Shown one piece after another: positions 41,009 through 60,663 of a DNA stretch of 61,792 nt. The notes under the pieces are model-generated. The model had not been told where the DNA came from and ran no database searches. It was given only the letters and a program-made list of their open reading frames with translations. Location of the stretch: positions 1 through 61,792 of the forward strand of contig JAHFSP010000005.1 of NCBI GenBank assembly GCA_023265685.1, read 5' to 3'. This stretch comes from Candidatus Woesearchaeota archaeon (GTDB taxonomy: Archaea > Nanobdellota > Nanobdellia > Woesearchaeales > GW2011-AR9). A program made the position numbers and the translations under genes. The stretch's first letter is position 1, and the number at the start of each line of letters is the position of its first letter.

Positions 41009-41161
41009 TTTTAACCTTAATATTATCACGATAAAGACCTCTTTAAAAAACTTATGAGAAAAAGAGGAATTGGGTAATAAAAGTTAGAATAAAAACTTAC
41101 CACTGGACGCACTGGTCAACTCCCAGAACGGTATATAAACCACCCCCACCCTCATAATTCC

Positions 41162-41427: not shown

Positions 41428-41617
41428 ATATTGCTAAAAGAAATCTAATCAAAATTATTTTTGATTTATATTATTTTTGATTTGCTTCTATTGATTTTTA
41501 GAAATGGTCAACAATATTAATCTTAGTAAGATCTCCAACCACCGCAAATTAGGAAGTAGAAGAAGCAAGTACACTCTCCAAAATATCCAGTGTTTACCAA
41601 TTCACCATTGGTCATTG

Positions 41618-41661
41618 ACCAGACATACACCAGACATACACCAGACATACACCAGACATAC
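41618..41661. repeat. Perfect tandem repeat (ACCAGACATAC)x4
   Basis: Four exact 11-bp units read directly from the sequence. Confidence 0.95.
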
Positions 41662-41680
41662 TCTTGACAATCAAAAAAGA

Positions 41681-44023: not shown

Positions 44024-44152
44024 TTCAACATATAAAAAAGATTGGCAACACTACAAAGTAACAAAACCTACTCCCTCAAAAAACCATCGCCTCAAGCATG
44101 CTGCCCGTCATTTGCCGAAAGACTTTAAAGTAGCCCTCCCCTCCACTTTGCA

Positions 44153-44719
44153 ATGGAGATTATAACCCCTACAGAGTTTAAAAAACAAGAAGAAAAATTC
44201 TGTGAAAAAATAACCAAAGGTGCCATATTCATTTATCCTACTGACACCATCTATGGCATCGGTTGCAACGCCCATAACGCTACCTCCATAAACCTTATTC
44301 GTAAACTCAAACAGCGCCCCACACAACCTTTTTCTATCTGTGTTCCATCCAAAATCTGGATTAAACAACATTGTACCATCGATAAAAAAATTCAACAAGC
44401 AATCAACAAACTTCCTGGCCCTTATACTCTTCTCCTCCAACTTAAAAACAAAAAAGCCATCGCCAGTAATGTTAATGGCAACCTAGAAACCGTTGGCGTA
44501 CGAATCACAAAACACTGGTTTCAGAGATATATCTTTAAAATGGATTTGCCCATCGTCACAACGTCAGTAAATAAACATGGCCAACCATTCATGACCTCAT
44601 TAGGAAATCTCAATCCAAATTTTGAACGGAATGTCGAGTTCTGTATCTACGAAGGACCAAAAGACGGTCGACCCTCAACAATTATAGACCCGCAAAAAGA
44701 AGAATACAAAGAAAGGTAG
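44153..44719 (+). CDS. tsaC: Threonylcarbamoyl-AMP synthase (Sua5/YrdC/TsaC)
   Basis: YPTDTIYGIGC, KQRP..P, LPGPYT, VGVR, TTSVN, PSTIID. Confidence 0.93.
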   Translation: MEIITPTEFKKQEEKFCEKITKGAIFIYPTDTIYGIGCNAHNATSINLIRKLKQRPTQPFSICVPSKIWIKQHCTIDKKIQQAINKLPGPYTLLLQLKNKKAIASNVNGNLETVGVRITKHWFQRYIFKMDLPIVTTSVNKHGQPFMTSLGNLNPNFERNVEFCIYEGPKDGRPSTIIDPQKEEYKER

Positions 44720-44750
44720 AAAAAAAGAAAACAAAAATCTAAATCAACTT

Positions 44751-45152
44751 CTAAACCCATACCGCCAAAATCACACCACTAATCAATAAGCACACTAAAT
44801 AATAGCCAGTATTAAGCACATAAAGTGAAAACGGTTTATTTTCCCATAAAACACTACCAAAAGCAACAGTTGCAATAAATCCAAGCCAACCAATCACTCC
44901 AATAAACATACCTTCAAGTGCTGTCGTTGCACCAGCATAACGAACCAAGTGAGCAAGAATAAACGTCATCAATAAAGCAGTCACTAAACCTCCAAAATAT
45001 CGCAGACCCATATTTGACTTATCCATTTTTTTAGGATCAATTTTCATTAAACGAACCCATTGCTTACCAAATAATGGACCGTACCATAAAGCACCTAACA
45101 CATACTGGATCAAACCAGCAACCACAATTGCAACATAATTCAATGTAACCAT
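44751..45152 (-). CDS. DUF1761 membrane protein
   Basis: NYVAIVVA....LGALWYGPLFGKQW, WLGF, WE.KP...Y..N.GY. Confidence 0.9.
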   Translation of the reverse strand: MVTLNYVAIVVAGLIQYVLGALWYGPLFGKQWVRLMKIDPKKMDKSNMGLRYFGGLVTALLMTFILAHLVRYAGATTALEGMFIGVIGWLGFIATVAFGSVLWENKPFSLYVLNTGYYLVCLLISGVILAVWV

Positions 45153-45240
45153 ACGAACACCTCTAACCTAACCAATAAAAGAGAGTTTAAATAATTACCC
45201 ATTAACAAAAACACGATTTAACAAAAACGTACAACAAGAC

Positions 45241-46284
45241 TTACTTCACTAACACAACCTTCTCCCCATCAACCAAAATAGTTGGATTCTTAAAAACCTG
45301 CGGCAAGTATAAAGGCAACGTTCCTTTTCGACCCCGCACGCACAACTCAATAGAAGCAGTTCCTAAAACTAAATGATCCAGAGTACGTGATCCAATTAAA
45401 AGAGAATGAGGATTCAAACCAACACCTATCCCTGCAACCAAACCCACCATTTCCAAATCATACCCCCTCTCCCCTAACCGTTCCATCATTTCTTCAAAAA
45501 CACCAGCATGCTTACCTTCCCAAGAAACAATTTTTCCATCAACAACTAACAGTGTGACTGGCTCATCGAGTAAAATACTTTGAGAATCAGTTGCAATACT
45601 TCCATCAACTACCACCGTTCCATTCGCCATTATTTTCTCAGAAAAACGTAAATACAATATACCAGGAGGAATATCGCCCCCATGCCCCCTTGTAAGATAT
45701 TCACCACATTCTAGAACCGACCCTCTACCCTCAATACTAACAGTTAAATCAGTTCCCGCTGTAGTTTTAAATCGTAACTCCTTCGCTTTATCCAATTTCT
45801 TCTTAAGAACAGCTGCCTGCTTACGCATCCGCTCTGAACTCACAAACATCGACTCCCATAAAAGACCACAATGATTTAATGAAATTTGATTTAAACCAGT
45901 CGTCAGAATAAAACGATGTCCCTGCCGTTCACAAAATATCTCAAAACCAATCAAAGAAGAAAAACGACCCACACAATCAGAAACAGCAACAATAATGATA
46001 CTATTTTTCTCCAACATTTCTAACGCTTTCACAACATGAGCATCCATAAACATAAATTCTTTTTTAAGCTCCTGAAACAAACAAGTCACATGTAAATCAT
46101 TCTTACGAGCACCTAAGTAATATCCATAGGCGACCATCGCTGACAACTGCTTTTCACCAACCCCATAATCACTAATTATCAAAACCTGTTCCTTGCGCAA
46201 ATGCACTGCATGTTTGAGCAATTTATAGAAACGAGATGCTTCTTTATCTACTTTAGCACGAAGAGCATCAGAAAGACCGAACAT
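45241..46284 (-). CDS. Peptidase M29 (aminopeptidase T)-like protein, metal ligands degenerate
   Basis: T.AGTDL.VSI, ANGTVVVDGS, PVTL.V.DG.I, GVGLNP, VF.NPTI.VDG. Confidence 0.75.
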   Translation of the reverse strand: MFGLSDALRAKVDKEASRFYKLLKHAVHLRKEQVLIISDYGVGEKQLSAMVAYGYYLGARKNDLHVTCLFQELKKEFMFMDAHVVKALEMLEKNSIIIVAVSDCVGRFSSLIGFEIFCERQGHRFILTTGLNQISLNHCGLLWESMFVSSERMRKQAAVLKKKLDKAKELRFKTTAGTDLTVSIEGRGSVLECGEYLTRGHGGDIPPGILYLRFSEKIMANGTVVVDGSIATDSQSILLDEPVTLLVVDGKIVSWEGKHAGVFEEMMERLGERGYDLEMVGLVAGIGVGLNPHSLLIGSRTLDHLVLGTASIELCVRGRKGTLPLYLPQVFKNPTILVDGEKVVLVK

Positions 46285-46334
46285 TACCTAAAGACCACTT
46301 GCCCACTTAAAAAGATTGTGTAGATCAAGAGCAG

Positions 46335-47099
46335 TTACTGGTCCTGAATTATAACTATTGCACCACCTAGAAGGGTCGTTTCACTTCCTCTATCACCAAT
46401 AACATAACCCCATGGATTAAGGAGTGCAGAAGCATTATCATCATACATCCAATCTCCTCCTCGATTAATTCGTCGTAAATGAAATCGCGCATGAGGATAC
46501 GTAATAACTCTATCGCATTGAATATATTCCTGTTTTTCCAACACGCTAACTACTCCCTCTAATGAAGTATAAACTGGTTCTGAAACAGTAGCTTGTGAAA
46601 CGTAGCCCCAATGACCATCTTTAGTATTATAAATTGTAAGAGCATGTGCAACTAAGCCCTCTTGTATTGGTTGCACATACGTAAGAAAAACGTCACCAAT
46701 AAAATCCATGTTAAATAAAAATGGAATCGGAAGAACCGCATACTCATCACAAACACCATATCCCCTGTTAGTTGTCCCTAAAGGACTCCCATATGAAATA
46801 TCTAACAAAGCAACCTTAAAACGAGCACTCAAAACATGTGGGTAAGAAATACCACTTCCAGCAAGGAATTTTCTATATCCCTCTAAGTCATGAACACTTG
46901 CAACCATACTATCAAAATCTTCCGGAGAAAAAATATGGGTTGGTTCAATAATATTATCCTGAGCAGGAACGGGAGGTAATTTTTCTACATTACATTGAAG
47001 AGGGTTTTGAACAGACCACTGTCCTCCATACGGCCAAGCACGAGCCGATCCACAGCCCACCAGAAGAGATAAGAGTGTAACGCCAGCAATGTGTCGCAT
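46335..47099 (-). CDS. Putative lipoprotein with transglutaminase-like Cys/His motif
   Basis: LLVGC lipobox-like; RGYGVCDEYA and AHA motifs. Confidence 0.6.
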   Translation of the reverse strand: MRHIAGVTLLSLLVGCGSARAWPYGGQWSVQNPLQCNVEKLPPVPAQDNIIEPTHIFSPEDFDSMVASVHDLEGYRKFLAGSGISYPHVLSARFKVALLDISYGSPLGTTNRGYGVCDEYAVLPIPFLFNMDFIGDVFLTYVQPIQEGLVAHALTIYNTKDGHWGYVSQATVSEPVYTSLEGVVSVLEKQEYIQCDRVITYPHARFHLRRINRGGDWMYDDNASALLNPWGYVIGDRGSETTLLGGAIVIIQDQ

Positions 47100-47196
47100 T
47101 AACAAGCAAGTACTTTTGAAGCTTATATATACTTTGATTATGGAGAATATAGAGGAATTGATTATTACTTTTCACAATTATTATTACTTCTCACAA

Positions 47197-48186
47197 TTAA
47201 GTCACTTTCCTAAACTTCGCTACGAAAAAACCTTCTGTATCGTTATCCTGTGGCCACAATCGCAACGAGTGTTTCACATCAGGATGATAGTCAACGCCTT
47301 TAAACGACATTACTGGTGCACCTAAGATCAAACCCGGTAACGTAACCGGAACGACACGCGCACTCGGCTCTGTCTTCAACAAATAATCAACCACACCTTC
47401 ATTCTCCTCAGGCTCAACCGAACAGGTTGAATACACCATCTCGCCACCCGGTTTCAAATTAGCGAACGCCGTCGTAACCAACTCCTTTTGTTGACGCGCC
47501 AGCTTAGAAATCATGTTGGCATTCCAAATCATTACCGTCTTAAGACTCTTACGAATCGTTCCTGTCCCAGAACAAGGAGCGTCTACCAAAATTTTATCAA
47601 ATACAAAACCTGCAAACCGTTTACCATGCATTAATGTAATCACACAATTTGTTAAACAACATCGCTGAACGTTAATGCCCAAAGATGCCAATCGTAATCC
47701 TTTGTAATCATTAGCAACTAAAACCCCAGTATTATTCATCATCGCCGCAAGTTGCGTCGTCTTACTACCTGGTGACGCACACATATCTAACACCAGATCA
47801 CCCTCAACCGGAACCAGCACAATTGGCGGCACCATCGACGCTGCTTCTTGAACATAAATATACCCAATTTGATGCTCCAACAGATTACCCACATCTTTAC
47901 GATCAGGATGAGTTATCCAAAACCCTTCAGGGCACCAAGGAATCTGCTCGAGAATCCACCCCTTAGCAGCTAACCTTTTCTTTACCTCAGCCACAGAACA
48001 CAAAATAGTATTGACCCGAATCGACCGTCGTAAATAAGAGAGTGAATATCTCTTAAATTCACCCCAATCCGTCAGTGCGCTATACCGCTCCACAAATTCT
48101 TTCTTAAAGACCATATCCTGTGCCGATTCAATAGGTTTGAGTACATGCGGCTTTTGCTTTGTCTTATCTTGCTTCTGTTTTTGCAT
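47197..48186 (-). CDS. RsmB/NOP2-family RNA m5C methyltransferase
   Basis: YVQEAASM, LDMCASPGSKTT, LVDAPCSGTG, VYSTCS..PEENE, EGFFVAK. Confidence 0.96.
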   Translation of the reverse strand: MQKQKQDKTKQKPHVLKPIESAQDMVFKKEFVERYSALTDWGEFKRYSLSYLRRSIRVNTILCSVAEVKKRLAAKGWILEQIPWCPEGFWITHPDRKDVGNLLEHQIGYIYVQEAASMVPPIVLVPVEGDLVLDMCASPGSKTTQLAAMMNNTGVLVANDYKGLRLASLGINVQRCCLTNCVITLMHGKRFAGFVFDKILVDAPCSGTGTIRKSLKTVMIWNANMISKLARQQKELVTTAFANLKPGGEMVYSTCSVEPEENEGVVDYLLKTEPSARVVPVTLPGLILGAPVMSFKGVDYHPDVKHSLRLWPQDNDTEGFFVAKFRKVT

Positions 48187-48321
48187 TAAAGAAGTATTAC
48201 GAGAGTGATTTAAAAAATGTCTGGAGAATACAAAGAGCAACCTATAAATACCAAAAACTCTTTCCAAAACTAAAAAGAATAAAAAGAAATCTCACAGTAC
48301 ACAAAAAGAGGTTGATGTTTC

Positions 48322-49338
48322 ATGATTAATGTTGCTATTAATGGTTTTGGCCGTATCGGCCGTATGGTTCTTCGAGCTGGCTGGAAAGATAAAAAAATCA
48401 ACTTCGTGGCAATCAATGACCCTGGCGACACCAAAATGATGGCACACCTTCTCAAATATGATTCCGTGCATGGACCATTCGCAGAAAATGTTTCCTATAC
48501 GCAAAACTCATTAATTATCGGTAAAAAGAAAATTATCGTCACTGGCGAAAAAGATCCCACCAAATTAGATTGGAAAAAACATAAAATAGATGTTGTTATC
48601 GAAAGTACAGGTAGATTTACCAAGCCGCAAGACGCACAGATCCATATCAAACAAGGTGCCAAAAAAGTTCTCATCTCAGCCCCTTGTAAATGTGAAGAAA
48701 AAGAATGGCCTAAAAACGCCGTAACTCTCGTTATGGGAGTTAATGAAAAAGACTACAAAAAAGCAACACACCAGATTATCTCTAATGCTTCGTGTACCAC
48801 CAACTGTGTTGCACCAGTACTCAAAGTAATTCAGGACTCTATTGGTATCAAACAATGTTTCTTCACCACCGTTCATGCCTATACCGCAACCGAACATCTT
48901 GTCGATGGCGCAGGTGATAAAGACATTCGCCGAACCCGAGCCGCCGGTATTAACATCATACCAACATCAAGTGGTGCTGATATTGCCGTCATTCAAACTA
49001 TTCCCTCACTGAAAAATAAAGTGCGCGGTTCAGCTTTTCGTGTTCCCGTAGTAGATGGCAGCGTAACCACATTTACCATCGAAACCAACCGCGATGTAAC
49101 GCCCCAAGATGTTAACAAACTTTTCCTTCAAGCATCAAAAGGAAAAATGAAAGGCATTCTAGAATACAGCACCGATGAACTTGTCTCAACCGACATCATC
49201 CACAACCCCCATTCAACCATCGTTGACTCCCTCCTAACCACCGTTGTCAATAAACGCATGCTTGAAGTCGTTGCCTGGTACGATAACGAGTGGGGGTACA
49301 GCTGCAGAATGGTGGACATGATTAAACATATATCTTAA
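48322..49338 (+). CDS. gap: Type I (bacterial-like) glyceraldehyde-3-phosphate dehydrogenase
   Basis: [38 protein letters not shown]. Confidence 0.97.
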
Positions 49339-49340
49339 CA

Positions 49341-49400
49341 CTCAAATTCTCAAGTCCCAAATTCTTAACTCTCAAATCTTTAAATCCAGAATTCTTAAAA
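49341..49400. repeat. Imperfect 15-bp tandem repeat x4
   Basis: CTCAAATTCTCAAGT / CCCAAATTCTTAACT / CTCAAATCTTTAAAT / CCAGAATTCTTAAAA. Confidence 0.6.
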
Positions 49401-49448
49401 CTAAAGTTAATAGGTAAGCTTTTTATTCTCTCTTCTTTTTCACATCCC

Positions 49449-50222
49449 ATGCCCAAAACAAAACCCCTCATCATCATCGCTGGACCCTGCTCCATTGAAT
49501 CAGAAAAACAATTTCTCACTATTGCCAAAGCCGTCAAAGCAGCAGGTGCTACCCACATTCGCGGCGGTGCATTCAAACCCAGAACCGAACCTACCGCATT
49601 CCAAGGTCATGGTCATGACGTACTACACCTGCTCGACAAAGCAAACCAACTCACCAAACTTCCCGTCGTCACCGAAATTCTCGATACCGAAGACATTGAA
49701 CAAGTCGCCCAACATACTGACATTCTTCAGATAGGCACTCGCAATATGCACAACACTGCTTTACTCAAAAAGATCGCTCAACGCACACCGCAAAAAACCA
49801 TTCTTCTCAAACGAGGTTTCGCCGCAACCAAAAAAGAACTTCTTGGTGCCATTGGCTATCTTCATCATCACGGCCACAAAGGTCAAATTATTGTTTGTGA
49901 ACGTGGCATACGTACCTTTGCCGACGGAGAATACAGTCGATTTACCCTCGATGTCAACTTCATCGCTGCCTGCAAAAAAGATCCGAAATTTCATTACCCC
50001 ATTATTGTAGACCCCTCTCATCCCGCAGGAAAAGCAGAATTAGTCGAATCACTCGCCTATGCGGGCATTGCTGCCGGAGCCGATGGCATAATTATCGAAG
50101 TGAGCATGAGCCCATTCATCGAAGTTGCCAAATCAGACAAAGACCAGCAAATAACTCCCGCCACACTCAAACGAATTATTCAGAATGCAAATAAGATACA
50201 TAAAATAGCAAACAAGAAATAA
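49449..50222 (+). CDS. aroF: DAHP synthase type I-beta (no regulatory domain)
   Basis: [48 protein letters not shown]. Confidence 0.92.
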
Positions 50223-50298
50223 AATAGTAAAACCGTAAACCAGAAGAAACGCAATTAAGAACCCACCCAAAGCGCATCCCTTACTTAAAGCACGCCCC

Positions 50299-52194
50299 TC
50301 ACTCAAAATACATCTTCTTCACATCTTTAACCTTCTGTACCCGACGAATCATATCCTTCAACTCTTCAATATCACGCGGCACAACGAGAAACGAACAGAC
50401 TGCGTGTCCTTCATTAAGCATCTTTGCTTTTGCCTCTTTAATCTCAAACCCAGCTCGTGCAATCGTGTGTAATAAATCAGCCAACAACCCACTCCTTTCC
50501 GTAGACTCTACAAAGAACCGAATTTTTTGATTAAATTCTTTTTTCCAATTAACATTTACCCAACGTTCTTCCTCTTTAAGAGCATCACGGCAATCTGGAC
50601 GATGAACCGACACGACGCGACGTTTATTCACAATTCCCACAATTTCCTGTCCCGGAAGAGCCACACAACAGCGCGCCAAGATACACGTAGCGTTTGGAAA
50701 CTGCGAAGATTCAACTAATACACCCTCTCCTTCTGCAATAAGCGGTTTAAGAGGACGAAAGTGCAACGGTGCAATTGTTTCATATTCCTTAAGCGCCTTA
50801 CGAATTTTTTGACGAGATTTTGCCGACGTGACAATCTTGAGCCAAGCCCGACGTGGACGCTGATTTTTCGCCGTTAATATTTCAATAACATCACCTGAAA
50901 GCAAAACACGTTTGAGCGGCACAAACTTTCCATTAACCCTTCCGCCAATAGTCGTGTTACCAATATGCTCATGAACTTGATACGCAAAATCAAGTAATGT
51001 AGCACCTGTAGGCAATTCTTTTACATCCCCTTTAGGCGTATAACAATGAATCTTATCTCCAAACAAATCAACTTTCACACTCTCCATGAAATTCTTTCCT
51101 TCATCAGAACGTTGAAGATCCAACACACTCTTAAGCCAGCCCACCTTTTTCTCAAATAACGGATCAGACCTACTCCCTTTATACTTCCAATGTGCCGCAA
51201 TTCCTTCTTCTGCAAACTCATTCATTTCAGGCGTACGAATCTGTACCTCAATAACATCCCCATTAGGCAACCGCAACCCCGTATGAATAGATTGATACAA
51301 ATTCATCTTTGGCGCAGAGATATAATCTTTAAGACGACCTTCAATAGGTTCGAAATTTTCGTGAAGTAACCCCAGCAACGCATAACAATCTTTTTCACCT
51401 TCAACTAAGACTCGAATACCTAACAGGTCATGTTGCTCATGAAGAGGCACTCGTCGTGTAATAATTTTACGATAAATACTATACACATTCTTAGGACGGC
51501 CCTTTATCGAAACCACCGTCACCTTTCCTAACGCAAGACGCTTAATCTGATCTATTGCCAAACTTATTTTACGTTCTCGTTGTTCACGCGACTCTTCAAG
51601 AAAATGTGAAATCTCCTGATACTTACGTTGATTCACAATACTAAACGCTAAATCTTCAAGTTGACTACGCATACGTTCCAGTGCCAGCCGTGATGCCAAC
51701 GGAGCATACACATCAAGAACCTCTTGTGCAATACGTTTCTGATCTTTCACACCTAACGCATGTATTGTTCGCAAATTATCCAACTTGCTCGCCAGTTTAA
51801 TGATGATAACCCGCACATCTTTAAGTGTCGTTAACAACAATTTACGCAACGCATCAGCTTCCAATTTTACATTCTTCGTCTTAATGGTTGCAAGATCATC
51901 AAGACCACGTAATAACGCAACAACTTCCTCGCCAAAAACAGTTTGAACCTCATGACTACCCGTAATCCGCAACACTCCTTGTAAAATCCCTGCCACAATC
52001 AATTCTGGTTGTGCGTTATTTTCTAGCAGAATTTCAGCCACACGACGATTATGATCAAACACACTATCTCCACCCAGACGCTTCACCACACCCAATAATC
52101 TCTCAGAAAGATCTAACGCCTGGGCAAACCGCCCGCAATGAAGCGCAGTATAGCCTGCTTTCTTACATCCAGACAAAAACAAAGAATGATCCAT
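50299..52194 (-). CDS. rel: Long RelA/SpoT homologue (degenerate HD, synthetase, TGS, Zn-finger, ACT)
   Basis: YAPLASRL, GRPKNVYSIYRK, DLLGIRV, RLKDYI..PK.N.YQSIHT, EVQIRT, AAHWKYK, TPKGDV..LP.GAT.LDFAY.VH, ARCC..LPG.EIVG, VHR.DC, R.GLLADL. Confidence 0.95.
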   Translation of the reverse strand: MDHSLFLSGCKKAGYTALHCGRFAQALDLSERLLGVVKRLGGDSVFDHNRRVAEILLENNAQPELIVAGILQGVLRITGSHEVQTVFGEEVVALLRGLDDLATIKTKNVKLEADALRKLLLTTLKDVRVIIIKLASKLDNLRTIHALGVKDQKRIAQEVLDVYAPLASRLALERMRSQLEDLAFSIVNQRKYQEISHFLEESREQRERKISLAIDQIKRLALGKVTVVSIKGRPKNVYSIYRKIITRRVPLHEQHDLLGIRVLVEGEKDCYALLGLLHENFEPIEGRLKDYISAPKMNLYQSIHTGLRLPNGDVIEVQIRTPEMNEFAEEGIAAHWKYKGSRSDPLFEKKVGWLKSVLDLQRSDEGKNFMESVKVDLFGDKIHCYTPKGDVKELPTGATLLDFAYQVHEHIGNTTIGGRVNGKFVPLKRVLLSGDVIEILTAKNQRPRRAWLKIVTSAKSRQKIRKALKEYETIAPLHFRPLKPLIAEGEGVLVESSQFPNATCILARCCVALPGQEIVGIVNKRRVVSVHRPDCRDALKEEERWVNVNWKKEFNQKIRFFVESTERSGLLADLLHTIARAGFEIKEAKAKMLNEGHAVCSFLVVPRDIEELKDMIRRVQKVKDVKKMYFE

Positions 52195-52257
52195 AACCCT
52201 AGGAGAGGTACACTAGAATAAAAAGGTTAGGGAAGCAAGTCTTATAATGTGCTAAAC

Positions 52258-53523
52258 TCAAAACCGAACCAACTCAATCTCCATCAATCGATTATACTTC
52301 GCGACTCTCTCCCCACGTGCAGGTGCTCCCGCTTTAATCTGCCCACATCCAAGTGCAACAGCTAAATCCGCAATAAAAGTATCCATCGTCTCTCCTGAGC
52401 GATGCGACACCATCACATTCAAACCATGTGAAAACATCAACTCAGCAGCATCCAGAGCCTCACTCACCGTTCCGATCTGATTTACTTTAAGCAACAAACA
52501 TGAAATACTTCCCCTCTCCAAAGCTCTTCCAACTCGTTCAACATTCGTAACAGTAAGATCATCTCCCACAATCTGAACTTTTGTACCCATTTGAGAACGA
52601 AGTAACGCAAAAGACGCAAAGTCCTCTTGCTCAAACGCATCTTCTATAGAAACAAGAGGATATTTCTTCACAAGACCAACATATAACCTAAGTAATTCTT
52701 CCTTACTCAACTTCTTTCCATCAACAGTATATTTTCCACTTTTGGAATCATAAAACTCAGACGCAGCACAATCTAACGCCAGATCTACCTTCCCTTTATA
52801 GCCAGCATCATGAATCGCTCTCATCAACATCTCCAACGCCTCATGTATCGATTTCATTGGCGGAGCAAATCCTCCCTCATCACCAACATTCGTCGCATTT
52901 GAGCCATACGTACGATGTAAATTTCTTTTCAAAACATGATACACTTCACTTGCTACTCGCAGATTCTCCGAAAACGTTTTCATACGAGGAACTATCATAA
53001 ATTCCTGAAACGCCAACGAATTATCAGCATGTTTTCCACCATTAACAACGTTAAAATACGCACGAGGGAGCACCATTTTTCTCTTACCACGTGCCTTACC
53101 ACCAATTTTCTCACCAACCAACTCATTCAAATACGCAAACAATTCAACCTTTTTCTCATCAGCAGCCACCCGACAACACGCAAGCGACACCGCAAGAATC
53201 GCATTCGCTCCTAATCTCTTCTTACTTTTCGTCCCATCCAGTAAACATAATAATCGATCAATTTCTCGTTGATCACAACAATCTTTCCCTTTCAAAGACC
53301 GTGCAATAATTGTATTTACATGGCCAACCGCTTTCAAAACACCATTACCACCATACCGTTTTCCACCATCACGCAACTCCATTGCCTCATGAACGCCGGT
53401 ACTCGCACCTGATGGTACACTCGCAACCCCTCTTCCCTTAGAAGAAACAACCGTAGCCTCAATTGTAGGATTGCCTCGGCTATCCAGAATCTCACGTGCA
53501 GTAATACTAACTATTTTTGCCAT
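52258..53523 (-). CDS. eno: Enolase
   Basis: ILDSRGNPT, PSGASTG..EA, GDEGGFAP, LLKVNQIG, SHRSGET, KYNRL. Confidence 0.98.
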   Translation of the reverse strand: MAKIVSITAREILDSRGNPTIEATVVSSKGRGVASVPSGASTGVHEAMELRDGGKRYGGNGVLKAVGHVNTIIARSLKGKDCCDQREIDRLLCLLDGTKSKKRLGANAILAVSLACCRVAADEKKVELFAYLNELVGEKIGGKARGKRKMVLPRAYFNVVNGGKHADNSLAFQEFMIVPRMKTFSENLRVASEVYHVLKRNLHRTYGSNATNVGDEGGFAPPMKSIHEALEMLMRAIHDAGYKGKVDLALDCAASEFYDSKSGKYTVDGKKLSKEELLRLYVGLVKKYPLVSIEDAFEQEDFASFALLRSQMGTKVQIVGDDLTVTNVERVGRALERGSISCLLLKVNQIGTVSEALDAAELMFSHGLNVMVSHRSGETMDTFIADLAVALGCGQIKAGAPARGERVAKYNRLMEIELVRF

Positions 53524-53611
53524 TTGTGTAATCTCAGAAAGAATTTTAACTTAAAGAATGTTTCGATTACAATAAGAAAGACATTTATATCTTTAAAGCA
53601 TATCACTACCC

Positions 53612-54271
53612 GTGGACACCTTCATCCAACTCAACAAAAAACATAGTAAAATTCCAAAACAGTTCCAAACAGATGATAACCGGTTCTCAGAATCATTTGT
53701 AGAATATATTCTCAAAAATTACACCAAAAAAACAGCGTTAATTATTGATCCTTTTGCAGGCCTAGGAACTACTCTTAAAGTATCAGAAAAGATGAATCAT
53801 ACGGCCTATGGTTTTGAAATAGACTATTCTCGCTACCAATACATCAAAAAACAACTCCAACATCCAAAAAATATCATCCATGACAGTGCTTTCAATCTAA
53901 ACAAACACCCTCTCCCCAAATTTGACCTTTGCCTAACCTCGCCGCCCTATATGCATAAAGATTATCATCGAAATCCTCTACGTAAAGAAACAAAAGGGGA
54001 TTATCAACAATATCTTGATGATCTTCTCAAAATCTACAGAAAAATAAAACCCCAGATGAAACAAAACTCGTACATCATTATTGAAGCTTCTAATCTTAAA
54101 GGAAAATATGTAACTACATTAGCTTGGGACATAACTCAAAAAATTTCTAAGATCTTCGATTTTGAAGGAGAAACTGTAATTCATTGGAAGAATCAGAAAG
54201 CCAAATCACAAAAAGGAACCTACGGGTACGGATACGACATCAGTTACTGTCTTGTTTTCAGAAAAAAATAA
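53612..54271 (+). CDS. Amino-type (N4/N6) methyltransferase, orphan
   Basis: IIDPFAGLGTT motif I followed by TSPPY motif IV; substrate (DNA or RNA) not determinable. Confidence 0.8.
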   Translation: MDTFIQLNKKHSKIPKQFQTDDNRFSESFVEYILKNYTKKTALIIDPFAGLGTTLKVSEKMNHTAYGFEIDYSRYQYIKKQLQHPKNIIHDSAFNLNKHPLPKFDLCLTSPPYMHKDYHRNPLRKETKGDYQQYLDDLLKIYRKIKPQMKQNSYIIIEASNLKGKYVTTLAWDITQKISKIFDFEGETVIHWKNQKAKSQKGTYGYGYDISYCLVFRKK

Positions 54272-54319
54272 TTCTAAACTGGCCTACTCATTAATCTTTC
54301 CATTTAATCCTTTCCCTAC

Positions 54320-55084
54320 CTACCCTTCTTTTGCATCCGGCATTACATACGTCAATACCAAAGGTTTTCGAGTCACATCAATACTTGCGACAACCAACGC
54401 CTCCACACCAGTCTCGACAGAAACGGCTTCCTTAACCTTACCCACATTCTGCCATTCAGGTAGATCACTCATCTTCATCTCTAACATAGAAACTAAACGT
54501 AAACTCTTAATATGTGCGGTAGAGCCCATAATCTTAGTATGGGAAGATTTCTGTAAATATCGTACAATATCCCACAAATTTTTAGAGGAGGTCATCCAAT
54601 TATACTTATCAAACCGAGTTAAATCAACGATTTTATACGCCCGAAGCCTCTTCTTACGATCTTCACTTGTGAAATATTCATGAAAATATGACATCACTAA
54701 CTCCCGAACACTCTTGTAAACAGGATCTCGATAGCGTAACACCGAATGATTCGTCTTTGAAATAGCACCCCATCGTCCATGTTGTTGAAAAAGAGCAACG
54801 ACGTGATCAGTATCACCTTTTGTTTCAAGATCAAGAAGTAATGGTCGCTGTCCATAAAATCGTAAAATAGCCGCTGCCACCAGTGCCGCTTCAAAACAAT
54901 GAGCATGATTTCTTTCTAACGTTGCCTTCGCAGACATATACGTCTCACCATGGTTTTCAAAATTAATAGGAAGCAAATCCAAATAATCCTGAATTTTTTG
55001 GGGTGTATTAAGCCGTTTGAAAAGTGAGATTTGCTCTTTTGTAAACTCTTTTTTAAAATCAAAGTCGATTTTCATTTCAGACAT
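54320..55084 (-). CDS. Conserved hypothetical protein, transglutaminase-like Cys/His
   Basis: TP.KIQDYL, AHCFEAAL.AA, DHVVALF, WGAISKTNH..LRYRDPVY.S.REL.MSYFHEYF. Confidence 0.78.
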   Translation of the reverse strand: MSEMKIDFDFKKEFTKEQISLFKRLNTPQKIQDYLDLLPINFENHGETYMSAKATLERNHAHCFEAALVAAAILRFYGQRPLLLDLETKGDTDHVVALFQQHGRWGAISKTNHSVLRYRDPVYKSVRELVMSYFHEYFTSEDRKKRLRAYKIVDLTRFDKYNWMTSSKNLWDIVRYLQKSSHTKIMGSTAHIKSLRLVSMLEMKMSDLPEWQNVGKVKEAVSVETGVEALVVASIDVTRKPLVLTYVMPDAKEG

Positions 55085-55306
55085 CTCATGTTGTAATTAA
55101 TAGGAATATAAAAACGTTTTCATTTTGTAAAAAGTCTAAAAACTAAAGAGAAACTAATAAAAAAATTAAAAATACATTTTTTATCGACGGGAATATCAAT
55201 AAAATAATAACTAATTTAAAAATTCAAAACGAAAATCAAAAACTAAAAATAAAATTCTCATCAATCACCACAATTCATATAAACCTACTAAACTAAAAAT
55301 AAATGT

Positions 55307-57712
55307 ATGCAATTAAATTACATCACGCTCCACAACATTCGTTCATACCAGAATCAAACGATTCCATTTAGTGAAGGCATAACTCTATTAGCTGGTGATA
55401 TTGGTGTTGGAAAATCAACCATTCTTCTTGCCATCGAATTTGCTCTTTTTGGCAGCTCACGTACCGAACTACCTGCAGAACTTCTCTTACGTAAGGGTAC
55501 TACGCAAGGCTATGTTGAACTCTGTTTTCTCATTAATAATCAAGAAATAATTGTACGTCGTGGTCTCAAAAAAGAAAACGACACCATTAAACAACTTGCA
55601 GGTCACATTATCAAAAACGGCGTCAAAAAAGACCTCATGCCCGTAGAACTTAAATCCGAACTTCTGACATTATTAGGCTACCCCTCTGAAATCCTTAGTA
55701 AAAACAAAAATTACATCTACCGTTATACCGTGTATACACCCCAAGAAGAAATGAAACACATCCTTGAACAAGATGCAGAAAGTCGGCTTGACGTCTTGAG
55801 AAAAATTTTCAATCTTGACAAGTACAAAACAATTCGTGAAAATACTGCAATATATTGTAAAAATCTACGAAATGAGATCACCATCAGTAAAACAAAGTGC
55901 GAACCCCTTCCAAACCATCTCAAAACACAAGAACAGCTTCAACAACAAAGAGAAAGTAAAGAACAAGAGATCGCTGTTCTTCAACCCCAATACGAACTTG
56001 CAGCTCAAGAACACAAAACCTGCCGCACTCTCAGAGAAAATCTCCAAAAAGACCAAATAAAAGCAACCCTGATTCAACAACGCAAAGCCTCATGTGAAGC
56101 CGTACTCCAACAACAACAACGCCAGCACCAACAACTCACACAACAACACCAACACCTCACCCAAAAACTCCTTATCCTTCCTCCTCAAACCCAAAACCTA
56201 CAAGAACGTAAAATCGAAATAACTAATCTTGAACAAGAACAACAACAGCATAATAGCAAAATTGCCTCCCTTCAACAACTCTCGCAACAACTCCACAAAC
56301 AAATTACCCAACTCCATACACAAACTCACCAGTTTGAATCACAAATCGCTACTTTTACTCAAAAAGAACAAGAAAAAGTCCGTATTGAACAAGAACTTGC
56401 GAAAACCATCAATCTTAACCAAGAATTAGAAATCAGCAACCGCACTCTTAACGAAGTAACAGCCATCATTGTCACACAACAAACTTTGCTTACTCAAAGC
56501 CAAAACATCGAGAGAAATTTCCAACAACTCGCCACCTGTCCCACATGCCTACAAGAGGTATCATCAGAATATAAACACTCTATCCTCAATACTCAACACC
56601 AAACACAGCATGAAATTGTAACCATTCTTACTCACAAAAAACAAGAAGAAACTACTCTACTCACCCAGCAGCGCTCTCTTCAACAACAACAAGAACAACG
56701 ACGAAAATATGAACAACAACACGTCCAACTCCACACCGAGCTTCTCTCTCTTATCGAAAAGAAAACTCAACATCAGCAATTACGTACTCACATTCAAACA
56801 CTCTCCATCGAACACAACGCCACTCTCAAAGAATTGGCAACTATAAACAACCCAGAAAAAATTACCCAACTCCAACAACGCCTCATTCATCTTCACACCA
56901 CCATCGAAAAAGAACGAGAACGACAACTCCTACAAGAACAACAACTCCAGATCACTAAAAGTATCCATCAACTTGAAGAAGAGATAGAAAAAAATCGCCA
57001 AATTCTCCAAAAAGAAGAAACAGAATTCTCAAAATACTCCGCAATCGCCCAAAAACTCCAAGACTGCCTACATCAAGAAGAAATTCTCCAAATCAAACTA
57101 AACACTAAAGCACTACAAAAAGTAAAAGGAGAAACAGAGCATACGGCCATCCTAACCACCCAAAAAGAGCTCAATAAAATAATTACCCAACTCGAAAAAG
57201 AAAAACAACATCTTCTCCACATTCAACAGCTTAATATGTGGCTTGAGGATCACTTCATGGCTCTCACCTTGACTATTGAAAAACATGTAATGGTCACCAT
57301 TCATCAACTTTTCAATGAACTATTTCGAGATTGGTTTGGCTTACTCATGCAAGACGATACTATTAATGCACGAATTGATGACACGTTTAACCCCATTATT
57401 GAACAAAATGGCCATGAGATATCATTTAGTAACCTCAGTGGCGGAGAAAAAACCTCTTGTGCCCTTGCATATCGACTTGCTCTTAACCGAGTCATAAACG
57501 ACGTCATTCACGAAGTCAAAACCAAAGACCTCCTCATTCTTGACGAACCAACTGATGGTTTTAGTTCAGAACAACTAGATCGTGTGCGCGACGTTCTTGA
57601 AAAATTGAATCTCAAACAGATTATTATAGTATCACATGAAGCCAAAATCGAAAGTTTCGTCGACCACATCATTCGCATCAAAAAAGACAGCCATATCAGT
57701 GAGGTGTGGTAG
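55307..57712 (+). CDS. rad50: Rad50/SbcC-like SMC-family ATPase
   Basis: L.NIRSY, GDIGVGKST, YTPQ Q-loop, CPTC zinc hook, LSGGE, LILDEPT, VSH. Confidence 0.88.
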   Translation: MQLNYITLHNIRSYQNQTIPFSEGITLLAGDIGVGKSTILLAIEFALFGSSRTELPAELLLRKGTTQGYVELCFLINNQEIIVRRGLKKENDTIKQLAGHIIKNGVKKDLMPVELKSELLTLLGYPSEILSKNKNYIYRYTVYTPQEEMKHILEQDAESRLDVLRKIFNLDKYKTIRENTAIYCKNLRNEITISKTKCEPLPNHLKTQEQLQQQRESKEQEIAVLQPQYELAAQEHKTCRTLRENLQKDQIKATLIQQRKASCEAVLQQQQRQHQQLTQQHQHLTQKLLILPPQTQNLQERKIEITNLEQEQQQHNSKIASLQQLSQQLHKQITQLHTQTHQFESQIATFTQKEQEKVRIEQELAKTINLNQELEISNRTLNEVTAIIVTQQTLLTQSQNIERNFQQLATCPTCLQEVSSEYKHSILNTQHQTQHEIVTILTHKKQEETTLLTQQRSLQQQQEQRRKYEQQHVQLHTELLSLIEKKTQHQQLRTHIQTLSIEHNATLKELATINNPEKITQLQQRLIHLHTTIEKERERQLLQEQQLQITKSIHQLEEEIEKNRQILQKEETEFSKYSAIAQKLQDCLHQEEILQIKLNTKALQKVKGETEHTAILTTQKELNKIITQLEKEKQHLLHIQQLNMWLEDHFMALTLTIEKHVMVTIHQLFNELFRDWFGLLMQDDTINARIDDTFNPIIEQNGHEISFSNLSGGEKTSCALAYRLALNRVINDVIHEVKTKDLLILDEPTDGFSSEQLDRVRDVLEKLNLKQIIIVSHEAKIESFVDHIIRIKKDSHISEVW

Positions 57713-57850
57713 AAAAGTGATATTGTAACCAGTTATCAGCCTCTATACCGGATTATCAATCTCAATCCCCAATCTAAAGCTTCTAAAAGTAATCTTAAAG
57801 TAACCTTACGCAAGGTAAGAGTTTAAATAGAAATAGAAATTTTGGAGGTC

Positions 57851-59056
57851 ATGTTTGAAGATGAAAGATTAGTCGGACTTCTAGAAGCCTATTATGAAAA
57901 ATCAGGAAGACGTCCTACCATTCGACATGGAAGTCTCCATCAAGATGGTAATTTCAGAAGAATCGTTCAAAGAGATTTACGCTCATTGGCTCAACGTGTA
58001 GATCTTGATATAAACGCACCACTTTGGACAGCATTATTAGTACAATCAGTTCAAGGTCACGCCCAACAGGGACACTGTGAATTCCAAGGACAACAGTACC
58101 CTGAAGCAACCATACCTGATATCATTCTAGCAGCAAATTTGGATTTAGATAAAATTAAAGTAGCACGCCAAAAATTAATCGATGATGTGTATAACTGGGC
58201 TAATTTGGCTCTTGAAGAAAAAAACCCACCCAGAAGACTCGTGATTGATGGTCAGCCCCTATTAGGAGCAAATTTTTTAAGAAATTATGAAGTAGAACCC
58301 ACCAATGTCCTACAAGGTATGATCCTTGCAGGATATATGGATAATTTCACAGCGAGAGAAAAAACCGTTGTAAAACACCCTTTAACTTTAAACGGTAAAA
58401 GAACTCTTGAAATTGGAGGAGGGGAAACCTATCTTGTAAACCAAAGAAATGTAATCCGATTTTTAGGAGATTACATGGGCCTGACCGAAAAAGGACACGA
58501 CAAAGAAGATATACAACTACTACGTGACGCAGAAGTAATTGTAGACAAACCTGGAAAAGGAATTTTAAGCGCCTATATTCGAAGAAAAGTAGGAGCTGGA
58601 ACTTCAGATGATATGGCTTTTGTAATTATTGGAAAACGTTACGGCATAGACGCCATGTTAGGAGCATTTGTCGTTGATGCGGTTGACACGTATGATAAAT
58701 GTACAAAATATCCTCAAGAAGGAGGCCATGATGAAAGAATAGCAGAAGTTATTCAAAATGGATGGAAAAGTACACATAAGACCTACTTGATCAGTGAAGA
58801 AGAAATTACCGATCTAATCTATTACGCAGCAAAAGGAAATACTCCCCAACTGTCTTTAAGCTCTTCACATAGACGTCTTGTACAATTACCCGGAGATCAC
58901 GTAGCCCCCACCATTGTCCTTCATGTCCAATATGTTAAAGGAGATAAACCAAAAAATTTCCCACTAGGTTTTAATCAAGTCCCCAGTGATTCTTTTTATG
59001 ACAATGCAGATTATAGGTGGAAACATTTGAGTGGAAACCTAACACCAGAAAAATAA
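57851..59056 (+). CDS. Hypothetical protein
   Basis: ORF of about 401 aa, GGAGG SD and TTTAAATA box; no recognised family. Confidence 0.75.
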   Translation: MFEDERLVGLLEAYYEKSGRRPTIRHGSLHQDGNFRRIVQRDLRSLAQRVDLDINAPLWTALLVQSVQGHAQQGHCEFQGQQYPEATIPDIILAANLDLDKIKVARQKLIDDVYNWANLALEEKNPPRRLVIDGQPLLGANFLRNYEVEPTNVLQGMILAGYMDNFTAREKTVVKHPLTLNGKRTLEIGGGETYLVNQRNVIRFLGDYMGLTEKGHDKEDIQLLRDAEVIVDKPGKGILSAYIRRKVGAGTSDDMAFVIIGKRYGIDAMLGAFVVDAVDTYDKCTKYPQEGGHDERIAEVIQNGWKSTHKTYLISEEEITDLIYYAAKGNTPQLSLSSSHRRLVQLPGDHVAPTIVLHVQYVKGDKPKNFPLGFNQVPSDSFYDNADYRWKHLSGNLTPEK

Positions 59057-59059
59057 ACC

Positions 59060-59141
59060 TATTCTTGGCCGAGGCTATCCCACCGCTTCCAACGGTCGCT
59101 TCGCAGCAAGCTGCGGGGTATTAGACCCACAAAGGGAATAA
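59060..59141. repeat. GC-rich palindromic REP/IS200-IS605-end-like element
   Basis: CTTCGCAGC-AA-GCTGCGGGG-TATT hairpin, ACCG..CGGT hairpin, outer TATTC/GAATA; GC-rich in an AT-rich spacer. Confidence 0.55.
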
Positions 59142-59218
59142 AGTGTGCGAGTTACTAACCTATTACTTACAAAACGTCTCATTAAAACTTCTTATCAAGC
59201 TACAAATTTCTTATCAAG

Positions 59219-59956
59219 CTACTTTTCCTTCTTCAAAAACTCCTCAATCATCGCAATATCTTCTTTCTTACCCAAATCCAACCAATAATCATGTATCATC
59301 AGAACTCTCATCTTCCCTCGCGCAGCCAAAACATTCACCGCATCCGTAAGTTCAATCTCCCCCCGTTGAGAAAGAGGAAGATCGCGTAATTCTACCCAAA
59401 TATCCTTCGTAAACTTGTAAATACCAGCACTTGCTAAATCTCCCATAAACTGCTGTGGCTTCTCCACGACTCTCTCTAAAAATAATTCATTCGTCTGCCC
59501 TTGCTTCATCCTAGATCCATCCCAAACTTTCAAAATCCCATATCGAGAAGGATCAGAAACCTTCTTTCCCATCATATAACAAAAATCATCACGAACATTC
59601 AATTTCTTCAAATCACGCACCGACAACAACCCATCACCACCTACCACAACAAAAGATTCTTCTCCACAAAAATACCGAGCCACTCGTAACGCATCACCAG
59701 TTCCTTTTTGCTCTTTCTGCTCAAGTAACGTTATAGTACAACGATGATCTTGAGCATACACCTGAAAAAACTCCGCTACTCTTTCCTTCTTATACCCAAC
59801 TACTACACCAAAATCAGAAAATCCCGCAGCAATCAGATGATCCAACACATAAGATAGAAACGCTCGACCACAAATCGGAATCAATACTTTGGGGATAGTA
59901 TCAGTAAGAGGAGCCAGTCGTGTCCCTCTTCCTGCCGCTAAAATAACAACTTTCAT
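59219..59956 (-). CDS. Sugar-phosphate nucleotidyltransferase (NTP_transferase)
   Basis: ILAAGRGTRL.PLT..IPK, Q.EQKGTGDA, YG, VVEKP, RGEIELTDA, WLDLG. Confidence 0.93.
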   Translation of the reverse strand: MKVVILAAGRGTRLAPLTDTIPKVLIPICGRAFLSYVLDHLIAAGFSDFGVVVGYKKERVAEFFQVYAQDHRCTITLLEQKEQKGTGDALRVARYFCGEESFVVVGGDGLLSVRDLKKLNVRDDFCYMMGKKVSDPSRYGILKVWDGSRMKQGQTNELFLERVVEKPQQFMGDLASAGIYKFTKDIWVELRDLPLSQRGEIELTDAVNVLAARGKMRVLMIHDYWLDLGKKEDIAMIEEFLKKEK

Positions 59957-60663
59957 AATCCACCTTTCTCAATTTTCGCCAAAACAGCAAGTATTTCACG
60001 AAGACTTTTTACCGAAGCAGTCGCCATCTTCTTTCCTTTCTCATCATTTCTTCCCCTACCCCATTGAACATGAATCGTTTTCATCCCCAACAACGTCGCC
60101 GGCATCAAATCCGTATCAAATTTATCCCCAATAACCACGCTCTTTAAAGGCGAAATCTGAAAATGTTTAATCACCTCTTGATACGCCACCTTCTTGTCAT
60201 AGACCGAAGTAATAATAATCTTACGAAAAAGAGTAGAGGCAATACCTGCACTCACCATCTTATGAAACTGCAACCTCTCCTCACCTTTTGAAACGAGAAC
60301 TAAAATATGCACAGAAGATAACTCATTCAAAACCTCGCAAGTCCCAGGTAACACAGTATACACATTCTTATCCAAATTACCATAATACGCTTTCTCACCA
60401 ATCAAAAAGAATTTTTGAGCATCACCACTTTTCTCAAACCTAATTACTTCTAAACTAACCGCTTCTAAAAACGACTTCAGTGCAGCTGATCCAGTTATAG
60501 CACCAGCATCAATCTCTCGTAAGCGACGTAAAGCATCTTCTCTACCCCACGGCAACTTCAGCCCCGCAGCACACATTGCATCAAGAGCATCCACTGTTTT
60601 ATATTCACGTGCAACTCTCATCGAATCAATTAACGTATCATCAAGATCAAATATGAGTAACAA
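59953..60663 (-). CDS. HAD-superfamily hydrolase
   Basis: IFDLDDTL, LVSKG, VIGDKFDTD..PA..LGM.T. Confidence 0.92.
   Translation of the reverse strand: MLLIFDLDDTLIDSMRVAREYKTVDALDAMCAAGLKLPWGREDALRRLREIDAGAITGSAALKSFLEAVSLEVIRFEKSGDAQKFFLIGEKAYYGNLDKNVYTVLPGTCEVLNELSSVHILVLVSKGEERLQFHKMVSAGIASTLFRKIIITSVYDKKVAYQEVIKHFQISPLKSVVIGDKFDTDLMPATLLGMKTIHVQWGRGRNDEKGKKMATASVKSLREILAVLAKIEKGGL

Follow-up and report, generated by a model that had tools for sequence, protein, structure and literature searches.

What does a long RelA/SpoT homologue (RSH) do in an archaeon? Signalling by (p)ppGpp is usually treated as a bacterial and plastid trait, and the DNA considered here—positions 1 to 61,792 of contig JAHFSP010000005.1 from the Candidatus Woesearchaeota archaeon assembly GCA_023265685.1, hereafter the window—carries a gene for such a protein on the minus strand at 50299..52194. 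A preliminary description of this DNA had read the gene as a full-length RSH with a dead hydrolase domain. The best explanation is a monofunctional long RSH, an alarmone synthetase (hS) in which a pseudo-hydrolase accompanies a synthetase that would be active, encoded by a resident Woesearchaeota-type gene; we regard this explanation as probable. That the protein is an active, synthetase-only, resident archaeal enzyme is, as judged by its residues, likely. Specific activation by ribosome and tRNA would have somewhat less than an even chance.

The gene starts with ATG and is a single uninterrupted open reading frame (ORF) with 631 codons. Its product of 631 residues consists of a pseudo-hydrolase, a synthetase, a TGS domain, a short linker, a zinc finger, and an ACT/RRM domain, in this order. 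These features are located as follows, with the evidence for each in brackets (AF2, AlphaFold2).

50299..52194, minus strand: long RelA/SpoT homologue, 631 residues (ORF, Pfam, TIGR00691, AF2 model, Foldseek)
51685..52119, minus strand: HD_4 domain (PF13328) with replaced catalytic residues, residues 26–170 (Pfam, E 4.2e-30; alignment with 6yxa; 120 relatives)
51172..51501, minus strand: (p)ppGpp synthetase domain, RelA_SpoT (PF04607), residues 232–341 (Pfam, E 6.8e-36; invariant columns; alignment of D256)
50872..51051, minus strand: TGS domain (PF02824) with H408, residues 382–441 (Pfam, E 1.7e-20; alignment; 510-protein count)
50698..50781, minus strand: short, partly disordered linker, residues 472–499 (alignment with 8fr8_I; AF2 model; linker counts; PF19296)
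50545..50697, minus strand: zinc-finger or conserved-cysteine domain, residues 500–550 (C509, C510, H531, C535; invariant columns)
50314..50523, minus strand: ACT/RRM domain, residues 558–627 (Pfam ACT_4, PF13291, E 5.2e-08, 33.9 bits against a cut-off of 27; β-α-β-β-α-β in the AF2 model)

The protein passes the NCBIfam model TIGR00691 (spoT_relA) with 512.6 bits against a cut-off of 499.2. The equivalogs of SpoT (NF008303, 388.7 bits against 947) and RelA (NF008124, 331 bits against 728) are not reached. Solved RSH chains that align to it number 26, the best being Bacillus subtilis Rel (6yxa) with an E-value of 4.5e-111. The AF2 model, built on an alignment of 85 archaeal and bacterial long RSHs, has a mean predicted local distance difference test (pLDDT) of 84.7 and a predicted template modelling score (pTM) of 0.70, and the HD_4 region folds as a helical bundle in it. 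The best Foldseek matches of this model are RelA on the 70S ribosome, B. subtilis Rel, and full-length SpoT. The gene interval and the motif readings GILQGVL and KLASKLDN of the preliminary description agree with the ORF and the 6yxa alignment.

Other assignments were tried and rejected. A small alarmone synthetase is contradicted by the YjbM model, which gives 28.3 bits against a cut-off of 320, and by the presence of five further domains. A β/γ-proteobacterial RelA is contradicted by the score for NF008124, the motif RLKD, and a branching position within the clan of short archaeal forms described below. A bifunctional Rel/SpoT (HS) is contradicted by QG, RI, and KLASKLDN at the catalytic places, the score for NF008303, and the lack of a match to PF01966.

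The loss of the hydrolase site follows from the residue-by-residue alignment with 6yxa, in which 'gflhdvvedt' of the bacterial protein is set against 'gilqgvlritg' and 'kladrlhnmrt' against 'klaskldnlrt'. The HD dyad is hence replaced by Q72 G73, the ED pair by R76 I77, and KLADRLHN by KLASKLDN—the Asp of KLAD having become Ser and the His of LHN Asp. The first histidine, H48, is the sole residue of the set that remains. The set scored was H..HD..ED..D..H, which we take to be the catalytic and metal-binding residues of Rel. The closest relatives, sampled as the best 120 matches, form a tight family of 609–752 residues at 56–100% identity, and none of the 120 carries the complete set. At the HD dyad they feature HG (73), QG (17), HS (6), or HD (4); the ED pair is retained in 0/120 and the KLAD aspartate in 3/120, an Asp replaces the LHN histidine in 116/120, and the H48 equivalent is present in 117/120. 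Canonical long forms, for comparison, keep HD in 261/265 and ED in 257/265 proteins. The HD model PF01966 gives nothing with the window protein even at E ≤ 10, and it was matched in 3/3 controls—one bacterial protein and two hydrolase-intact archaeal relatives. The dead hydrolase domain of the preliminary description is hence confirmed at the level of residues, and the loss is a trait of the entire subfamily, no private lesion of the gene at 50299..52194.

The conservation of the individual domains among the 120 closest relatives goes in the same direction. The mean frequency of the commonest residue is highest in TGS (0.82) and synthetase (0.81), which are the best conserved domains, and lowest among the folded parts in the pseudo-hydrolase domain (0.67), where 25/145 columns are at least 95% conserved. 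This pattern fits selection for synthesis and regulation, with the old hydrolase domain kept as a putative scaffold. Public records often name close relatives of the hydrolase-lost form 'bifunctional (p)ppGpp synthetase/guanosine-3',5'-bis(diphosphate) 3'-pyrophosphohydrolase'; for the hydrolase-lost clade, this name is probably wrong.

The RxKD-type synthetase motif and the TGS, zinc-finger, and ACT domains of the preliminary description are borne out by RLKD at residues 287–290, the Pfam matches, and the residues C509, C510, H531, and C535. The synthetase columns invariant across the 85 archaeal and bacterial long RSHs are R233, K235, K243, D256, Y300, H304, E316, and Q318. D256 is aligned to D264 of B. 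subtilis Rel, of which the D264G exchange inactivates synthesis (PMC7797070). The motif [R/K]xKD occurs in 119/120 closest relatives—as RLKD in 107, KLKD in 11, and RIKD in 1—and the synthetase-side blocks GRPKNVYSIYRK, DLLGIRV, EVQIRT, and AAHWKYK are present in the window protein.

The residues with which bacterial RSHs sense tRNA and ribosome are retained as well. H408 of the TGS domain is aligned to H420 of B. subtilis Rel, with H432 as the counterpart in Escherichia coli RelA, and this histidine contacts the CCA end of tRNA (PMC7797070). In a set of 510 proteins, short and long forms gathered from homology searches, the column holds His in 510/510. The residues C509, C510, H531, and C535 are invariant across the 85-sequence alignment; over the 510 proteins, the CC pair is found in 508, the His in 509, and the last Cys in 509. 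The AF2 model features β-strands at residues 494–550 in this region, and the bacterial zinc-finger domain contacts the A-site finger (PMC6606846).

Bacterial long RSHs exceed the window protein by about 100 residues, and the difference lies between TGS and zinc finger. Residues 546 to 647 of mycobacterial Rel (8fr8_I) are aligned to residues 470 to 488 of the archaeal protein. In the AF2 model, the TGS strands are followed by one helix (458–471), a disordered part (474–488, pLDDT <50), and the zinc-finger strands; helices are absent between residues 471 and 536. The linker, counted in the 510 proteins from where the TGS-proximal helix ends up to the first cysteine of the zinc finger, spans 34 residues here versus a median of 109 in the long forms. 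It is shorter than 60 residues in 245/510 proteins, with exactly 34 in 148 of these, and 66–127 residues long (median 109) in the other 265/510. The model RelA_AH_RIS (PF19296) gives nothing with the window protein at E ≤ 10, versus 48.9 bits with the Clostridia control P0375; in precomputed domain lists, PF19296 is present in long and absent in short forms. The helical domain is a standard component of long RSHs (PMC6606846; PMC7797070) and occupies residues 470–583 of B. subtilis Rel (PMC7797070). In experiments with the latter, TGS and helical domain together formed a stable tRNA complex and the isolated TGS domain did not (PMC7797070), and changes in the helical region of Caulobacter crescentus Rel deregulate synthesis (PMC6606846). 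Since the domain used together with TGS for deacylated tRNA is absent, bacterial-style coupling to the ribosome cannot be assumed. The term full-length thus stands in part: the protein is a long RSH that passes TIGR00691 and has all other domains, but no helical domain separates TGS from zinc finger.

Are the forms without helical domain related to each other? A homology scan of 1.84 billion representative proteins yielded 18,960 matches at E ≤ 0.001. Among the best 150 of these, short forms align in one stretch and canonical forms in two, with a break at approximately residue 470. In a FastTree phylogeny of 158 rows, the forms with linkers of 25–36 residues all lie outside a 123-row canonical clade (support 100, starred). 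With the linker columns removed, the short/long split is one branch both in a quick IQ-TREE run on 85 rows (99 in the Shimodaira–Hasegawa-like approximate likelihood ratio test, SH-aLRT) and in a careful run on 61 rows (ultrafast bootstrap 100, SH-aLRT 99). The forms lacking the helical domain are a single clan. Classification by hidden Markov model and phylogeny, the check that the preliminary description had proposed, hence yields a TIGR00691 member within this short archaeal clan.

Within the clan, the state of the hydrolase site varies. In the 85-row tree, the window protein lies within a starred set of 27 rows, and a set of 31 rows that includes Pacearchaeota-like sequences has a starred support of 100; all rows of both sets are without hydrolase residues. 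Hydrolase-intact short forms—among them P0403 and P0497 (Woesearchaeota), P0494 (Nanoarchaeia), and P0347 (Nanoarchaeota)—sit between the group of the window protein and the canonical forms, mixed with degenerate ones, and the tree requires at least six changes of hydrolase state. The full set of hydrolase residues is found in 65/245 short versus 246/265 long proteins. Short proteins with an organism name are archaeal in 11/11 cases, as are 12/12 short loci; long proteins with an organism name are bacterial in 25/25 cases, mostly Bacillota, and so is the single long locus. The preferred reading of this history is a single transfer from a Bacillota-like donor, followed by loss of the helical domain and then by repeated loss of the hydrolase.

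Is the gene native to its host? The features in its immediate vicinity are as follows.

52258..53523, minus strand: enolase, directly upstream of the RSH gene (TIGR01060, 512.7 bits)
48322..49338, plus strand: type I (bacterial-type) glyceraldehyde-3-phosphate dehydrogenase (GAPDH), convergent with the RSH gene (TIGR01534, 403.5 bits)
52217..52224, minus strand: TATA-like box TTTTTATT, at −30..−23 from the ATG of the RSH gene (sequence)

Archaeal genes lie on both sides of the RSH gene for tens of kilobases: the window encodes a family B DNA polymerase, LonB, ribosomal protein S8e, Rad50, and a Hel308 fragment, and further archaeal-type genes for AMP phosphorylase, an S-layer protein, and a PGF-pre-PGF protein. 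No tRNA or Rfam matches were found in its 61.8 kb. A scan that kept one genome per species gave 13 related loci, 12 of them with archaeal labels. The RSH protein is 50–59% identical to that of the window in 11/13, labelled Woesearchaeota, Nanoarchaeota, 'archaeon', or, in 4/11, 'uncultured Methanosarcinales archaeon'; the last looks like an automatic label, yet an archaeal one. The remaining two are one Pacearchaeota locus (39% identity) and one Bacteriovoracaceae locus (35%; its linker, at 115 residues, is of canonical length).

The order enolase–RSH–GAPDH recurs in diverged Woesearchaeota-type genomes. Enolase stands upstream on the same strand in 9/11 closer loci, and the other two end at a contig edge within about 140 bases; GAPDH stands downstream on the opposite strand in 9/11 (L001, L003, L004, L006–L010, and L012). 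An RsmF-like methyltransferase is near the gene in 7/11 and TsaC in 5/11. The archaeal type II model gives 29.8 bits with the GAPDH of the window, versus the 403.5 bits for type I, which is the bacterial and eukaryotic kind. The conserved GAPDH is thus a second bacterial-type gene fixed in this neighbourhood.

Composition and promoter fit these surroundings. The G+C content of the RSH gene, that of its third codon positions (GC3), and its GC3 skew match those of the adjoining genes. The skew of +0.69 lies among the values of +0.23 to +0.89 in 30/31 other minus-strand genes, all 16 plus-strand genes having −0.20 to −0.77, and a strand-wide mutational signature is therefore common to the gene and its surroundings. 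An A/T-only run of at least seven bases that starts at −36..−29 and ends at −25..−19 precedes the gene in 13/13 archaeal loci, the window included, in DNA that is A+T-rich and with no chance control for the count; for L002, positions were counted from an ATG that lies two codons within the ORF as listed, which begins with TTG. The run is probably an archaeal TATA box ahead of a leaderless or short-leader mRNA. The RSH gene has long resided in the chromosome of its host, a Woesearchaeota-type DPANN archaeon, where it is inherited stably, and the contig is not chimeric. Archaeal genes across the window and the conserved gene order support the archaeal provenance given in the preliminary description, and the order in 9/11 loci, the shared strand bias, and the promoter-like box at a conserved position support its view of a long residence. 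A chimeric contig, which it had named beforehand as fatal to its reading, is contradicted by archaeal flanks, gene order, and composition.

Two neighbouring genes are particular to the window. A DAHP synthase gene (49449..50222, plus strand; TIGR01361, 284.5 bits) lies between GAPDH and RSH and is absent from this position in 13/13 related loci; its GC3 skew of −0.74 is in line with the local strand bias. A small N6/N4 DNA methyltransferase gene (PF01555; 53612..54271, plus strand) adjoins enolase and has a lower G+C content of 0.34; no counterpart was found in the related loci, and the adjacent genes include no recognisable restriction enzyme.

How would such an enzyme work? Its reaction would yield (p)ppGpp, with ATP as the donor of pyrophosphate and GDP or GTP as the acceptor. 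As in E. coli RelA, the pseudo-hydrolase domain has presumably been retained to assist the synthetase, structurally or allosterically. The C-terminal modules would hold the enzyme off until a signal arrives, and TGS, zinc finger, and ACT/RRM would switch it on at uncharged tRNA on a stalled archaeal ribosome. The signal would still be of this kind because the CCA-contacting His and the residues of the domain for the A-site finger are invariant; the same invariance of TGS His and zinc-finger residues makes a stringent-like response on archaeal ribosomes, as proposed in the preliminary description, plausible. With a bridge of only about 34 residues between TGS and zinc finger, the ribosome-bound protein would have to adopt a geometry unlike the bacterial one. 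An ancestor of several DPANN groups would have taken up a bacterial Rel, the hydrolase site of which would have decayed later and more than once. The product would be removed by a separate enzyme, for which the hydrolase-intact short RSHs of other Woesearchaeota (P0403, P0497) and of Nanoarchaeota are the natural candidates.

Several points weigh against this explanation. Every functional statement on the protein rests on conserved residues. Because B. subtilis TGS without helical domain holds no stable tRNA complex, sensing of tRNA and ribosome may be weakened or replaced in a protein that lacks this domain. On the side of turnover, no second RSH-type HD or synthetase domain was found in a six-frame translation of the window and the 13 related loci (262.7 kb), and no member of the Nudix, PPX/GppA, or small alarmone hydrolase (SAH) families among the 47 window ORFs scanned; neither the 61.8-kb window nor the related loci hence yielded the separate hydrolase or second RSH that the preliminary description had called for. 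The archaea examined for (p)ppGpp, Haloferax volcanii and Sulfolobus acidocaldarius, gave no sign of it, and both are without an RSH gene (PMC8646023, 2021). As to the trees, four rows with linkers of 50–59 residues lie inside the canonical bacterial clade of the 158-row tree, so partial shortening occurs in canonical lineages too. The short/long branch is found in 100% of 200 bootstrap trees of the careful run, of which the bootstrap was not fully settled (correlation 0.973), and the trees are unrooted, with bacterial rows that are nearest matches only. Finally, the ESM Atlas clusters nearest to the short form P0124 are mostly bacterial (72%, 86%, and 100%)—a similarity of features with few labelled members and no alignment, from a tool not meant for taxonomy. 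Short forms may therefore occur in bacteria.

The explanation competes with others, of which one concerns the signal: the protein would still be active as a synthetase but would have ceased to read the ribosome, and its C-terminal domains would sense a metabolite or a protein—ACT binding amino acids, for example, or TGS binding a partner—or only autoinhibit. The missing helical domain, the unstable hold of B. subtilis TGS alone on tRNA (PMC7797070), the deregulation caused by helical-region changes in C. crescentus Rel (PMC6606846), and glycolytic genes on both sides in 9/11 loci speak for this. A CCA-contacting His in 510/510 proteins and zinc-finger residues in 508–509/510 are, however, hard to explain without contact to tRNA and ribosome, and this reading is rather unlikely. 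Another would retain both activities by means of a rearranged active site, making use, for instance, of the conserved Asp of KLxxKLDN. In its favour are the names that source records give to close relatives, the retained HD_4 fold, H48 in 117/120 relatives, and an Asp three residues past the lost one in 116/120. These names come from automatic annotation, however, and with HD replaced by QG and ED by RI, an ED pair in 0/120 and an HD dyad in 4/120 relatives, no PF01966 match at E ≤ 10, and 388.7 of the 947 bits for the SpoT equivalog, a bifunctional enzyme is improbable.

The remaining alternatives concern product, target, and origin. Some RSH synthetase domains are toxins of toxin–antitoxin pairs (10.1101/575399), and the lack of a hydrolase nearby would likewise suit a growth-arresting toxin of the kind known among small alarmone synthetases, or an enzyme for another nucleotide such as (p)ppApp. 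Against this, the protein branches with long RSHs, stays at 28.3 of 320 bits with the YjbM model, and keeps the invariant columns of the 85 long RSHs, and its neighbours are enolase and GAPDH and no two-gene toxin–antitoxin pair; we consider this very improbable. Even less credit is due to the suggestion, in line with the host-directed alarmone of the preliminary description, that the alarmone is exported to act on the host cell of a presumed episymbiont. It draws on a general proposal for the DPANN lifestyle (PMC8407392) and, again, on the lack of a hydrolase nearby, but the neighbourhood gives no sign of export or of an RSH-linked transporter, the N-terminal 25 residues have, by eye, no hydrophobic leader, and the protein retains every regulatory domain expected of an intracellular sensor. 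It is barely credible that the gene is bacterial and lies on a contaminated or chimeric contig, or that it was transferred very recently and has yet to integrate. The family is bacterial in origin, with acquisition from Bacteria predicted (PMC8407392), and the nearest long forms by profile score are Bacillota proteins of 49–56% identity over about 70–78% of the query. Opposed to this are archaeal flanks of tens of kilobases, the same neighbours in 9/11 diverged loci, matching G+C content, GC3, and GC3 skew, the TATA-like box in 13/13 loci, and a tight family of 120 relatives.

Some further observations on the window concern neither the gene nor its neighbours. Its strand asymmetry is very strong and independent of gene direction: the plus-strand GC skew is about −0.06 to −0.38 in nearly all 2-kb steps of 1..61792, and genes occupy 38.6 kb on the G-rich strand versus 16.0 kb on the other. 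The whole 62 kb looks like a single replication arm whose heavy strand is G/T-rich, and the asymmetry seems unusually strong for an archaeon. The sole minus-strand gene with opposite GC3 skew (−0.38) encodes an S-layer-like protein of 907 residues (25068..27791, minus strand); a recent inversion, an acquisition, or a composition constraint of the protein could be the cause. An ORF of 236 codons (28205..28915, plus strand) aligns only to the first approximately 210 positions of Hel308 models of 700–740 residues and looks like a truncated helicase or a stand-alone DEAD-box domain, the former because the following gene, on the opposite strand, begins after 275 bases. On the minus strand within 6105..9407, tandem HIT-family genes (6105..6710 and 6723..7625) are followed by an RNase HIII-like gene (7678..8493) and an RNase HII gene (8589..9407) side by side. 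The window also encodes a PurF homologue (38688..40106).

RelA/SpoT genes of DPANN archaea are already in print (PMC8407392) and in public annotation. A 2011 survey found only small RSHs, in few archaea, and took the lack of long RSHs for an archaeal trait (PMC3153485), and the update of 2019/2020 distinguishes 13 subfamilies of long RSHs (10.1101/575399). Its supplements, in files that are possibly incomplete, contain no mention of Woesearchaeota, Pacearchaeota, Archaea, Diapherotrites, or Nanoarchaeota (PMC7229694). A DPANN study of 2021 then reported RelA/SpoT in 69.0% of Diapherotrites, 41.7% of Woesearchaeota, 21.3% of Pacearchaeota, and 19.0% of Nanoarchaeota, with predicted acquisition from Bacteria (PMC8407392). 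The preliminary description's view of long RSHs as a bacterial and plastid hallmark thus reflects the state of 2011 and was overtaken by this report. Within a literature search of incomplete coverage, this study is the only one to mention RelA/SpoT in DPANN, and no paper on hydrolase loss, a missing helical domain, or a conserved setting in these archaea was found; a Nanobdellota preprint of 2026 mentions none of the terms ppGpp, SpoT, alarmone, or stringent. What appears to be new, on the evidence of sequence, is a DPANN-associated long RSH without helical domain and, within it, a large synthetase-only subfamily in Woesearchaeota.

This subfamily is large, conserved, and chromosomally fixed, with synthetase and tRNA-sensing residues apparently under strong constraint; the use of (p)ppGpp in archaea and its targets are thereby testable with one cloned gene. 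In addition, the natural loss of the helical domain is a deletion experiment on the coupling between tRNA sensing and catalysis in long RSHs. A tentative and more far-reaching proposal, which we hold to be unlikely in its entirety, is that DPANN archaea run a (p)ppGpp system of their own, in which the RSHs of Woesearchaeota have split into a synthetase-only sensor, reading the archaeal ribosome with a new geometry, and a hydrolase-competent partner. If true, this split would parallel the division of labour between bacterial RelA and SpoT, and the sensor would be the first stringent factor on a ribosome that is neither bacterial nor organellar.

The RelA/SpoT genes of the 2021 DPANN study (PMC8407392) belong to the same gene family and host group as the window gene; the accessible part of its text gives presence and predicted origin, and nothing on hydrolase loss, helical domain, or gene order.

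Bacterial Rel, represented by 6yxa and by the Mycobacterium smegmatis/tuberculosis-type 8fr8, features the identical order of HD, synthetase, TGS, zinc finger, and ACT/RRM domains. B. subtilis Rel is colinear with the archaeal protein over residues 39–470 of the latter, and the two have the RxKD motif and the pairs D256/D264 and H408/H420 in common. The archaeal protein differs in its host, in the replaced catalytic residues of the hydrolase, and in a helical domain cut to its first helix and a disordered linker.

The hydrolase-intact short RSHs (P0403, P0497, P0494, and P0347) belong to the same clan, with linkers of 29–33 residues and the same phylum-level labels, and are 33–39% identical to the window protein in the alignment behind the invariant columns. 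They keep H..HD..ED..KLADRLHN and match PF01966, whereas the window protein does neither.

E. coli RelA (5iqr, 5kps) is monofunctional (hS) and combines a degenerate hydrolase domain with a retained synthetase, as does the archaeal protein, the activity of which is predicted; it is also the top Foldseek match of the archaeal model. The window protein is nevertheless not a member of the RelA group, as it lacks the helical domain, carries RLKD, and falls below the cut-off of the RelA equivalog. RelA has an acidic ExDD motif at the RxKD place. The loss of the hydrolase in the archaeal protein is, as far as residues and trees can tell, independent of that in E. coli RelA because intact and lost forms are mixed within the short clan, with at least six changes of state.

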